A stretch of DNA of 64,000 nucleotides. Source: Candidatus Poribacteria bacterium (lineage in GTDB: Bacteria; Poribacteria; WGA-4E; WGA-3G). The notes under the pieces were generated by a model that was not told the origin of the DNA, searched no databases, and worked only from the letters and a program-made list of their open reading frames with translations. The DNA is taken from NCBI GenBank assembly GCA_965205015.1, contig OZ242029.1, positions 2,400,001-2,464,000 on the forward strand. Reading direction: 5' to 3'. Positions 21,780 through 42,567 of this stretch are shown here, piece after piece (position 1 is the stretch's first letter; every line of letters starts with the position of its first letter). A program made the translations under genes and the position numbers.

Positions 21780-23852
21780 TTAGTGCCTCTTAACCGTTTC
21801 CAAAGCGTCCATTAAAAATATATGGTATTCTTTTGCATCCATATAGGGTTTATTCGATACTCCGTAAGGTAAATGATCTATCAACTCCAACTGGGGTGAT
21901 AGGACGAAAGCGTTTACGGAATAATCTGGGTTGTGTGTGAGAGTCTTTTCATAGGTTTCGGTGATCCGTGTGGCTAATTTGCTTATCTGATCACCCTTTG
22001 CTCCATTCTGAAGTTCGGGTAGATCGCTTAGTTGAAGGAACACACTGACATAGTGTTTATTGAGTAACTTGATGACCTTAGAATCAGAGAGGACAAATGT
22101 CCTCAAGGTTTTACCGGTCCCGCAGCAAGATTCATCGTCGAAAGCACCCTTTGTTAGAACGACGTGAATTGGGCGCTTCTTGGCTTGTGCTTGTGCAACG
22201 ACCCCTTCAATAGGGCACCTCTCAATTTCTGAAAACTTGTAGAAGGCAGCCTCTAACATATCCTTTGCTTCTTTTTCAGTGATGGCAGTCTTCCAAACGA
22301 TATCACGCTGATCCTGTGTGTTCCGTCCGACAAGTTCCATGCGCGGAACGAAAACCGTATCTGCTAAGTTATGGGCGTTGAGGTCAACATTGGTATTGCG
22401 AGGTGGAAGATAGAGCCAAAACTCGCGGATCGTGCCGTATTTCCGGTTGAGTATGAGTTGCCCGGTAAATTGTGCTGGGGTAAAGTAAGCACCCGCCTCT
22501 CCATCAAGTAGGAATTCGGCATGGATTCTGAAGACGATTTCGACGTAATTTGGCGAGACTGCCCGTATGCACGCATAGGCACCTTCTGACTCAAACCGAC
22601 GTGAACGAAACAGCGTCAAGCCAAAAAATTCCAGGACAAACTCTGTGCCTGGATTGCTATGCATCTCCGCAGTCGCTCCGGGATGAAATTGACGAAGAAA
22701 CGGTATAATGTTTTGAGTATCAAGGGTCCATAGGTGTCCTACGGTGAAACTTTTCTTCGGGAAAAAGACTCTGAAAGCGTCCGTCCCATATTCTTGGCTC
22801 GGGTGAGCCGGTGAAAGATTATGAAAGAGGGCAGCGTGCTTGGGCGAGTTAAGTGCGGTATCAGCAATCGGGGCCCAATATGCATCCACCTGTATTGTCT
22901 TATTTCTCTTTGGGGAATCCCCTTGGGTGTCAGATGTTGAGTCCTTCTGAGAAATCTGCGGATCCCCATTACCCTTTTCATCCTCGGACACAGTCTGTCC
23001 AATCTGATTTCGGACGGCGGGTTTAGCATCTATATTATGGATGACGGGTGCATCCACAATTTCAATTGTGGGTTGAGATGCGGCTTCAAAGTTATAAGGT
23101 TTCTGAAAGCGAACAAGATACCGATTGCTGGTCCCTAACAGGAGTATCACCAAGATAGTAAACGCACCAACAGCGATCCATGGAAGCAGGGGTTTCGTAG
23201 CCGTTGGTGGTGTGGGATCGATATCGGCGACGTGCCGCATAATGTTCTGTGTGAGATTTTCTGATAACTGAACCCCACCAAGGGTTTCCTGAATCAAAAG
23301 TTCTTGATCTGCTTGCAGGCGCTTTCGCGCACGCCGGAGCCGACTGGCAATCGTGTTCACCGATACCCCTAAGAAGTTACCTATCTCCTTGAGGGTCATT
23401 TCACCGAGATAGTAGAGCGTTACGATAGTGCGCTCGCTCTCTGGTAGTTTTTCAAGAAGTTTTTCAACGAGTTCATACCGACGTTCGATGGCTTCTGCCT
23501 CGCGCTGTTCGGAGACGTAACGTTCATAATCTGACTTTTCTGTTTCTTTCACAGGTGTCTCCTCCAACGATTGAACTGTTGGTTTCCGTTTGCGCCTCCA
23601 AGCAATGCAGTGCCGATTGGCGATAACATAGAGCCACCCCGCAAATTGATCGGGATTTTTGAGCGTTGAGAGTTTTTTATACACCTGAAGGAAGGTGTCT
23701 TGTGTAATCTCTTCAGCATAATGGAAATCCCCTATCTTCCGCCACGCAAGTGCATGAACGCTTCTTTGGTACTTTTGGACTAAGCGGCTAAACGCGGCTT
23801 CGTTGCCCGACAATATTTCGTGAATCAATTGGGCATCGTCTTCTCTGTTCAT
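21780..23852 (-). CDS. ECF sigma factor - TM helix - selenoprotein N (SELENON)-like domain fusion (Cys homolog)
   Basis: Sigma2 'AEEITQDTFLQVY...FAGWLYVIANR', sigma4 'LPESER...EIGNFLGVSVNTIASRLRRAR', TM 'LLPWIAVGAFTILVILLLG'; the C-terminus has 'FRIHAEF','FTPAQFTG','GAFDDESCCGTGKTLR', matching recalled SELENON motifs. Confidence 0.85.
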   Translation of the reverse strand: MNREDDAQLIHEILSGNEAAFSRLVQKYQRSVHALAWRKIGDFHYAEEITQDTFLQVYKKLSTLKNPDQFAGWLYVIANRHCIAWRRKRKPTVQSLEETPVKETEKSDYERYVSEQREAEAIERRYELVEKLLEKLPESERTIVTLYYLGEMTLKEIGNFLGVSVNTIASRLRRARKRLQADQELLIQETLGGVQLSENLTQNIMRHVADIDPTPPTATKPLLPWIAVGAFTILVILLLGTSNRYLVRFQKPYNFEAASQPTIEIVDAPVIHNIDAKPAVRNQIGQTVSEDEKGNGDPQISQKDSTSDTQGDSPKRNKTIQVDAYWAPIADTALNSPKHAALFHNLSPAHPSQEYGTDAFRVFFPKKSFTVGHLWTLDTQNIIPFLRQFHPGATAEMHSNPGTEFVLEFFGLTLFRSRRFESEGAYACIRAVSPNYVEIVFRIHAEFLLDGEAGAYFTPAQFTGQLILNRKYGTIREFWLYLPPRNTNVDLNAHNLADTVFVPRMELVGRNTQDQRDIVWKTAITEKEAKDMLEAAFYKFSEIERCPIEGVVAQAQAKKRPIHVVLTKGAFDDESCCGTGKTLRTFVLSDSKVIKLLNKHYVSVFLQLSDLPELQNGAKGDQISKLATRITETYEKTLTHNPDYSVNAFVLSPQLELIDHLPYGVSNKPYMDAKEYHIFLMDALETVKRH

Positions 23853-42567: not shown

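Follow-up and report, generated by a model that had tools for sequence, protein, structure and literature searches.

Putatively membrane-tethered ECF sigma factors with interchangeable outer domains and a predicted common promoter in Candidatus Poribacteria

Judged from their sequences, three genes, designated here A, B and C, in a 64,000-nt stretch of contig OZ242029.1 from a Candidatus Poribacteria bacterium (the window, that is, the whole stretch analysed, to which all positions refer) are members of a single-pass, membrane-tethered family of extracytoplasmic function (ECF) sigma factors, which is widespread and heavily expanded in Poribacteria. The family is very large and undescribed, and it appears to control genes for exported proteins. 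One conserved cassette bears many unrelated C-terminal domains, of at least 15 types, which supports the modular arrangement with swapped tails that had been put forward in a first-pass annotation of this DNA. New here are a predicted ECF-type promoter motif with exported targets, an outer linker that is unstructured in both structural models obtained, and a TGA codon at the SCCG position of the gene A orthologues.

Results

Three window genes with one cassette

The three genes, and the parts of the cassette as they occur in gene C, are the following (pLDDT, predicted local distance difference test).

21780-23852, minus strand: gene A, 690 amino acids (aa); ECF sigma, transmembrane (TM) helix, conserved linker and a tail like selenoprotein N (SelN), in a Cys variant (...ESCCG...)
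33817-35784, plus strand: gene B, 655 aa; ECF sigma, TM helix, conserved linker and a six-bladed Kelch propeller
39673-42567, plus strand: gene C, 964 aa; ECF sigma, TM helix, conserved linker and a BNR/sortilin/DUF6242-like tail
39739-40206, plus strand: gene C, sigma2 (aa 23-89) to sigma4 (aa 127-178), from Pfam; pLDDT >90
40264-40302, plus strand: gene C, modelled juxtamembrane cytoplasmic helix (aa 198-210, LIENIMQQVADL); block pLDDT about 92, I203 conserved in at least 90% of 125 sequences
40339-40392, plus strand: gene C, TM helix (aa 223-240); G239 at least 90% conserved
40396-40533, plus strand: gene C, conserved outer linker (aa 242-287: YLIRFQKPYSFEAQSEP..IEIVD...KPAVRNQVG); pLDDT 42-57, no Pfam or PDB family

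The three open reading frames (ORFs) share an N-terminal cassette, as the first-pass annotation had described; it is about 320 aa long and ordered sigma2, sigma4, short helix, Pro-rich stretch, one TM helix and conserved outer linker, with 65-67% identity over 316 aa (67% for B and 65% for A, each relative to C). After sigma4 come LGGVQL..L.(E/Q)NIM..(V/I)AD, PTPP...KPLLPW, a hydrophobic helix and then the linker motif YL.RFQ(K/R)PY.FEA.S(E/Q)P..EI.D...D..P.VRNQ(I/V)G, so that all of the motif strings named in that annotation were found. The homology breakpoint was located at nucleotide level, likeness among the genes setting in about 40 nt 5' of the ATG and fading near codon 320. These ATG starts agree with the family-wide N-terminus M..DDVQLI, and alternative upstream starts are found at 23879 (TTG, gene A) and 33775 (GTG, gene B). 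Sigma70_r2 (PF04542) and Sigma70_r4_2 (PF08281) are present in all three proteins (Pfam, E 1e-12 to 3e-17), which score 92.6-105 bits against a cut-off of 42.9 with the ECF superfamily model TIGR02937 and hence qualify as ECF sigma factors (sigma-70 group 4).

The proposed Kelch tail of gene B proved to consist of six repeats (PF01344, E 2.5e-71), and the BNR-propeller tail proposed for gene C held in part: DUF6242 (42.4 bits, cut-off 29) and Sortilin-Vps10 (33.8, cut-off 33) exceed their cut-offs, whereas the BNR model itself stays below its own (24.2 < 27). The tail of gene A has no Pfam match. None of the 24 window ORFs scanned (Pfam, E<=1e-5) belongs to an anti-sigma or FecR family, in line with the earlier statement that no such gene is recognisable nearby, and the one intergenic gap listed (35790-36210) holds no ORF longer than 52 aa.

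Extent of the family and integrity of the fusion

A profile covering the 103 aa of the post-sigma4 region, TM helix and linker was run against 1.84 billion representatives and matched 261 protein clusters (50% identity) at E<=0.001, of which 207 also reach E<=1e-10. Where a row has a long N-terminal part, the position of the linker is nearly always about residues 184-287, just behind a sigma domain, and at least 170 aa precede it in 102 of 153 sequences, a set made up of 150 listed clusters (of the 261) and the three window proteins. A word-indexed search with the gene B segment returned 820 proteins, of which the best 120 include 119 Kelch orthologues and three named rows, all Candidatus Poribacteria. 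With one genome taken per GTDB species, 446 stretches encode a relative, and the 79 loci kept comprise 76 titled Poribacteria and 3 titled 'uncultured bacterium'. A match was present in 68 of the 81 genomes of a phylum sample (46 with 9-60 copies, 22 with 1-6) and lacking in 13; from the 261 clusters and these 68 genomes, the linker is clearly conserved beyond the locus from which it was first described.

Copy numbers were taken from five other Poribacteria genomes of 5.4-6.7 Mb, in which the linker profile has 38, 29, 29, 34 and 27 matches, many of them in tandem rows, as against 67, 62, 52, 74 and 54 matches to sigma4 (PF08281), so that about half of the ECF-type sigma4 regions in these genomes belong to the family. 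All 150 matches listed from these five genomes are free of internal stop codons. All six loci examined from low-copy genomes are fused in one frame (708-994 aa). Genomes with few copies therefore have the fusion just as those with many do, which suggests an old origin within the phylum.

Separate genes for the sigma and membrane parts had been suspected from gene calls starting with 'MIRE...' or 'MRQVAD...', and this was not supported: the 6/6 low-copy loci encode both parts in one frame, and the supposed starts are in-frame Met codons within it; one cluster with such short-start calls also contains a 1070-aa member. Many public gene calls begin at the Met of '(E/Q)N(I/V)M' or at a Met on the sigma4 border. 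The former (Met204 of gene C, 40282-40284, and its counterparts in A and B) has an ATG codon in 50 of the 51 family sequences compared, and the Glu codon at 'ENIM' is GAG in 45 of 51, a pattern compatible both with constraint on the protein and with an internal start signal.

Further long ECF genes, with open frames of about 560-610 aa and no match to the linker profile, form a second set at G002:C1:4519776-4520472 and at similar places in genomes G001, G004 and G005. For at least one of them, at G002:C1:4520317 (open frame 606 aa), a shorter-spacer variant of the promoter motif described below (..TTTCGTCTTTAA) lies about 540 nt upstream. These genes may be another tethered family with a related promoter.

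Diversity of the tails

A tail of at least 120 aa is present in 119 of the 153 sequences, and the tails fall into 18 BLAST clusters. Among 24 tail representatives the Pfam families found were BNR/sortilin/DUF6242, WD40, LRR, GHL15, CarboxypepD_reg with C-type lectin, Peptidase_M16_C, Redoxin/AhpC, Reg_prop, Big_5, transglutaminase core, Trypsin_2 with TPR, and Laminin_G_3, next to tails without any Pfam family. The 116 non-window tails were labelled by BLAST to these Pfam-typed references, which makes the labels approximate, and the tabulation of C-terminal domains that had been suggested earlier thereby gave at least 15 types: 42 BNR/sortilin, 34 WD40, 15 untyped, 6 LRR, 4 GHL15 with LRR, 3 lectin-type, 2 M16-like and 2 redoxin tails, and one each of SelN-like, Kelch, Reg_prop, Big_5, transglutaminase, CarboxypepD_reg, trypsin with TPR, and LamG.

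Tail domains also exist as free exported proteins. Relatives of the gene A tail occur on their own with 59-71% identity to it, and two stand-alone Kelch proteins are encoded in the window.

28254-29342, plus strand: exported stand-alone Kelch protein; 36% identity to the gene B tail, signal-peptide-like N-terminus
32475-33539, plus strand: exported stand-alone Kelch protein; 38% identity to the gene B tail, signal-peptide-like N-terminus

The segment between sigma4 and the tail

Conservation, taken as the mean frequency of the commonest residue in 125 family sequences, was compared by region.

sigma2: 0.76
sigma2-sigma4 connector: 0.50
sigma4: 0.77
post-sigma4 helix segment: 0.59
Pro-rich stretch: 0.57
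TM helix: 0.56
outer linker: 0.64
following spacer: 0.28 (27% gaps)

Residues K219, P220, P223, G239, F248, Q249, P251, Y252, A256 and E263 are conserved in at least 90% of the sequences. On the cytoplasmic side, the segment from sigma4 to the TM helix measures about 40 aa and holds one amphipathic helix and the Pro-rich stretch; the outer juxtamembrane motif spans about 46 aa, with the core RFQxPYSFxAxSE...IEIVD...KPxVRNQxG. A 133-aa post-sigma4 query containing the linker matched no Pfam family at E<=10, and a comparison of the linker segment with PDB chains gave no match, its sole row being a TM-like chance hit at E 0.06.

In the AlphaFold2 model of the gene C cassette (125 sequences), sigma2, sigma4 and helix 198-210 are confidently predicted and the TM helix is placed at 223-240, and from residue 241 onward secondary structure is lacking (pLDDT 42-57). 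The AlphaFold model of full-length gene B (74 sequences) has a confident Kelch propeller and an unstructured stretch at residues 240-317 (pLDDT 26-46). The juxtamembrane helix has a pLDDT of about 92 in the C model and about 79 in the B model. Being conserved, unstructured and common to unrelated tails, the linker would be a poor fit to a folded domain; its features would better suit a linear element that is recognised by a common partner or protease.

A predicted promoter and its targets

The upstream regions of 61 family genes, each taken as 200 nt, contain a motif in two parts, ATGCAC(C/A).TTT...AAAAT(C/T)G(T/C).TCTTTAA, whose layout (TGCAC, about 17 nt, then CGT) is that of ECF promoters. 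A position weight matrix (PWM) was built from 19 sites upstream of family genes, and a window scan allowing one or two bases of spacer play gave 7 sites, compared with 0 in 19 and 1 in one of 20 dinucleotide shuffles. All seven are intergenic and co-oriented with the next gene (T9SS, type IX secretion system).

16567-16608, minus strand: predicted promoter upstream of the exported PD40/TolB-like propeller gene 15558-16538; PWM 26.7
23892-23933, minus strand: predicted promoter, proximal copy, upstream of gene A; PWM 44.8
23964-24005, minus strand: predicted promoter, distal copy, upstream of gene A; PWM 48.5
28145-28186, plus strand: predicted promoter upstream of the exported Kelch gene 28254-29342, then the WD40/T9SS gene 29385-31490; PWM 36.7
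31529-31570, plus strand: predicted promoter ahead of the LamG gene 31639-32478, the Kelch gene 32475-33539 and gene B; 42-mer identical to 28145-28186
36053-36093, plus strand: predicted promoter upstream of the ABC2-like membrane gene 36214-37800; spacer one base shorter
38006-38046, plus strand: predicted promoter upstream of the ABC2-like gene 38145-39590, then gene C; spacer one base shorter, same sequence at the syntenic place in genome G002

The motif before gene A is doubled by a 72-nt tandem duplication at 23871-24012 (two copies, 97% identical), and a 120-nt promoter-plus-leader block is repeated with 86% identity before the Kelch gene (28135-28254) and before the LamG-Kelch-gene B row (31519-31638); a terminator-like hairpin follows gene B at 35818-35839. 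Promoters of the sigma-70 type are not enriched between 27900 and 42700 (22 vs 17.4 +/- 3.7 in shuffles).

In the 79 loci, all 69 hits scoring at least 25 lie on the gene strand and 68 of them have an ORF within 400 nt behind; 31 motif hits are flagged before a family gene, and the others stand before signal-peptide proteins (LamG-like, Kelch, PD40, M16-like) or ABC2-like proteins. The strict pattern ATGCAM-N20-21-TCTTTAA occurs 21, 25, 11, 21 and 27 times in the five genomes, and its reversed control 0 times. The target proteins in the window have signal-peptide-like N-termini, as judged by eye. A predicted promoter of ECF type stands in front of the family genes, and equally in front of genes that encode exported repeat proteins or ABC2-like membrane proteins.

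Some of the putative targets, and one further neighbour, have features of their own. The WD40 protein (29385-31490, plus strand) combines a signal-peptide-like start, dockerin-like repeats, 126-nt internal repeats and a T9SS type A sorting tail, and passes the T9SS sorting-domain model with 30.2 bits vs 23. The two ABC2_membrane_2-like membrane proteins (36214-37800 and 38145-39590) each stand behind the family promoter motif with no adjoining ATPase gene; similar genes of about 470 aa, with the motif, lie upstream of BNR-type family genes at nine loci (L021, L022, L048, L052, L062, L067, L073, L074 and L079). An exported protein resembling 3-keto-disaccharide hydrolases is encoded at 42638-43402 (plus strand), 71 nt 3' of gene C, and exported proteins of about 250 aa with a similar N-terminal stretch (..FL(D/E)TF(D/E)..) have the family promoter motif at four loci (L007, L018, L030 and L044).

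Predicted selenocysteine in orthologues of gene A

The SelN-like character that had been claimed for the gene A tail draws support from two sides: an Atlas feature search placed it nearest to a 'Selenoprotein N' cluster (0.93, 205 of 256), which is a lead only, and the tail carries the SC[U/C]G motif. The tail had no match in the PDB, and a named animal SelN was absent from its sequence matches (all 36 of one search, the best 120 of 502 of the other), which were only Poribacteria-labelled or unnamed proteins. The decisive codon is the following.

22122-22124, minus strand: Cys577 codon (TGC) of gene A; TGA in 6/6 orthologues examined

These six orthologues, from other genomes (loci L080-L085), read ESC-TGA-G where the window copy has ESCCG, and beyond the TGA their frame stays open for 112-113 conserved codons until it ends in a TAA. 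With the in-frame TGA, the second Cys of SCCG would be replaced by selenocysteine (Sec), giving the SCUG motif of selenoprotein N. Public gene calls of the orthologues end at 576 aa, right after '...DDESC', and those of the stand-alone paralogues end at about 300 aa. Both selA and selB exceed their cut-offs in 5/5 genomes, and tRNA-SeC lies beside selB in 2/2 loci. A hairpin 3' of the TGA was considered as proof of a Sec insertion sequence (SECIS) and rejected, since it has no compensatory change and overlaps conserved codons.

Animal SelN is described, in the part of PMC12839072 consulted, as a type II single-pass protein with Sec in an SCUG motif of a lumenal/non-cytosolic redox domain. The gene A orthologues would likewise be single-pass type II membrane proteins, with a predicted Sec in an SC-U-G motif of the outer part, the window copy having Cys. 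Unlike in animal SelN, the cytoplasmic N-terminus encoded by gene A is a complete sigma factor; homology to SelN is suggested by the Atlas match and the motif.

Two TonB-dependent-receptor-like/CarboxypepD_reg outer-membrane proteins with near-identical N-termini are encoded directly 3' of gene A on the same strand (16679-21673, minus strand). Together with gene A they may form an operon reminiscent of cell-surface signalling.

Discussion

Release by proteolysis and its alternatives

The joint explanation to which we incline, and to which we give somewhat more than an even chance, is that of a modular tethered ECF sigma family whose members are released by regulated proteolysis and drive a common promoter class. 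The sigma part would lie on the cytoplasmic side, with the tail outside; a cue received by the tail would expose the common juxtamembrane motif to a shared site-1 protease, an RseP-type site-2 protease would then cut the TM helix, and the freed sigma domain would drive the shared promoter class, comprising the sensor genes themselves (positive feedback) and genes for exported proteins. Given how closely the paralogues resemble each other in sigma domain and promoter, it is probable that many sensors act on a single overlapping output and not on regulons of their own. Regulated proteolysis is a plausible mechanism by analogy, and we prefer it; a precedent for the release of a fused sigma factor is IutY, which is freed via Prc and RseP according to the consulted part of PMC8999054. 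An M50 (RseP-like) protease is encoded in one strong copy in each of the 5/5 genomes.

Several points weigh against this explanation. The M50 protease is near-universal, 14/14 control genomes also having one, and its presence is therefore weak support. Neither a signal-peptidase-like nor any other nameable cleavage motif was found in the linker, and the intramembrane proteolysis step is drawn from analogy, with cleavage site and site-1 protease both hypothetical. With regard to the promoter, genes B and C have no strong motif directly upstream, so that their co-transcription with upstream genes is something we infer; a promoter specificity common to the paralogues is suggested by their similarity, and the -10 region varies (CGTATC, TGTGTC, CGCGTC), making sub-specificities possible.

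A more far-reaching version of release by proteolysis, which we regard as a tentative idea and rather doubtful, is a receptor system that resembles Notch but has sigma factors as its effectors. Each cell would have dozens of receptors, every one a single polypeptide with the same cassette; each would be shed on its own cue at one motif by one protease, and all would converge on one promoter class for the exported 'eukaryote-like' repertoire and for the receptors; one member would be a Sec redox receptor, with a sigma factor fused to a selenoprotein N homologue.

An alternative that we consider unlikely is action in the tethered state, in the manner of ToxR/CadC, in which a ligand would alter the oligomeric state or conformation and the membrane-bound sigma would recruit RNA polymerase to nearby DNA with no cleavage. 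The lack of an anti-sigma domain and of a recognisable cleavage motif would suit such a mode of action, as would the roughly 40 residues, Pro-rich stretch included, that separate sigma4 from the membrane. However, to work in the holoenzyme a sigma factor has to be buried in it, and the strict conservation of the outer motif would be left without an obvious explanation. We are aware of no sigma factor for which activity in the membrane-bound state has been demonstrated; among the papers listed by a search of IutY-related literature, none speaks of membrane-tethered, membrane-anchored, membrane-bound or transmembrane sigma factors in these terms.

Improbable to a similar degree is autoinhibition in cis, with helix 198-210 as a built-in, class-II-like (CnrY-like) mini anti-sigma that closes sigma2/sigma4 and is relieved by a change transmitted along the TM helix, or by proteolysis and removal of the stub. 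The helix is modelled with confidence in both B and C, and the modelled sigma2/sigma4 superposes best on CnrH bound to CnrY (4cxf_A, TMt 0.68, root-mean-square deviation (rmsd) 4.5), holoenzyme-bound sigmas giving an rmsd of about 27. This superposition is weak evidence, however. Compact ECF models are common in AlphaFold anyway, and after cleavage the helix would remain on the sigma factor. Going by the models, helix 198-210 may still be a small inhibitory or docking element built into the cassette.

We give slightly less credence to the tails being anchored copies of the regulon's exported families rather than ligand sensors, their own folding, export or turnover reporting on and tuning the exported repertoire. 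The resemblance of the gene B tail to the two exported Kelch proteins behind the same promoter motif, the stand-alone paralogues of the gene A tail, and the occurrence of LamG, PD40 and WD40 both as family tails elsewhere and as promoter-linked exported proteins would all be expected in that case, but the commonest tails (BNR/sortilin and WD40) are much larger than the exported neighbours. That the genes are mis-assembled or decaying, functionless fusions is very improbable, given their freedom from internal stops, the conservation of the fusion across 68/81 genomes and the clear constraint on the linker.

Wider interest

As a rule, an ECF sigma factor has a separate anti-sigma factor as its partner, and each such pair serves one signal. 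In the five genomes, about half of the ECF-type sigma4 regions instead lie in fusions without an anti-sigma domain, with at least 15 kinds of outer domain on one cassette, a natural plug-and-play scaffold for transmembrane signalling that has a defined predicted promoter and is of interest to synthetic biology. 'Eukaryote-like' exported proteins have long been noted in Poribacteria, and the family offers a testable route for their regulation in an uncultured sponge-symbiont lineage. Gene A and its orthologues would, from their sequences, also constitute a bacterial, genetically framed relative of selenoprotein N, the chemistry of which is still poorly understood in animals.

Comparison with known sigma systems

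The family was compared with the ECF groups through their published descriptions. Among the NCBIfam models, A, B and C pass only that of the ECF superfamily. The closest solved, named sigma core is SigW (PDB 5wuq, E 3.1e-21; Foldseek 2.6e-8; NF007223 as the best specific NCBIfam model), and the three proteins fall below the SigW equivalog cut-offs (NF007223, 108-116 bits vs 209; TIGR02948, 96-106 vs 243). The SigW/RsiW system of Bacillus subtilis differs in having a separate anti-sigma factor, and the family -35/-10 layout resembles that of the SigW promoter (TGAAAC-N16-CGTA).

Class I anti-sigma domains are helical, measure about 80-90 aa and lie N-terminal to the TM helix, whereas the family has the single helix aa 198-210 between sigma4 and the TM helix. 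Neither zf-HC2 nor any other family was found between residues of about 185 and 290 (Pfam; E<=0.01 on whole proteins). This distinguishes the family from the actinobacterial groups ECF48/52/53 (e.g., SCO4117), which, in the consulted part of PMC8999054, combine a fused sigma, TM helix or helices and an outer sensing domain with a zinc-finger (ZAS-like) anti-sigma domain, and for which activation by proteolysis has been proposed.

IutY of Pseudomonas putida, a FecI-type sigma with a FecR-type anti-sigma that is listed under ECF243, is a fused protein released by Prc and then RseP (consulted parts of PMC8999054 and PMC5411451). Like the family members, it is a single polypeptide that begins with an ECF sigma, has one TM helix and ends in an extracytoplasmic part. 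It differs in its FecR-type anti-sigma part and TonB-dependent transducer partner, while the family has only about 40 aa from sigma4 to the TM helix, interchangeable tails and tens of copies per genome. No FecR family was detected in whole A, B and C (E<=0.01) or in the 133-aa post-sigma4 segment (E<=10).

The remaining groups are taken from the consulted part of the supplement to the ECF reclassification (PMC7826278). ECF57, which is there 100% Planctomycetes, has a long C-terminal extension with about 2 TM helices, some WD40 and an invariant Cys pair (one in sigma2, one in sigma4); it is similar in that its ECF sigma is extended C-terminally across the membrane, in some cases with a beta-propeller, and differs from the family, which has one TM helix, belongs to Poribacteria (76/79 related loci) and lacks the Cys pair, only C81 being conserved as Cys and sigma4 of A, B and C having none. 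In ECF128s2 (Actinobacteria), the +1-gene partner is a single-pass protein with a short cytoplasmic N-terminus without a Pfam domain and an outer BNR/sortilin/YCF48 domain, the BNR/sortilin domain being the commonest tail type of the family; as described there, however, ECF128s2 consists of two genes and is confined to Actinobacteria, whereas the parts are fused in the 6/6 low-copy loci and in all window genes examined. ECF263 has a predicted promoter with TGCAC(A/C) at -35 and CGTC at -10 and a membrane-embedded C-terminal extension; its description gives 5-7 TM helices, no outer domain and a mainly proteobacterial distribution, unlike the family.

The name 'Poribacteria' does not occur in the consulted part of the supplement text (PMC7826278), a term search for literature naming both 'Poribacteria' and 'ECF' returned only work on THI4 thiazole synthases, and a Poribacteria single-cell genomics paper (PMC3909097) contains neither 'sigma' nor 'ECF' by the same kind of search. 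The first-pass annotation had made its proposal depend on the architecture being absent from characterised groups, and the family departs in at least one defining feature from each of those compared (ECF57, ECF48/52/53, IutY/ECF243, ECF128 and ECF263). In conclusion, the family is a further form of the already known membrane-tethered ECF sigma factors, set apart from them by the absence of an anti-sigma domain, a conserved outer juxtamembrane motif, diverse tails, high copy number, and a predicted promoter linked to exported 'eukaryote-like' proteins.

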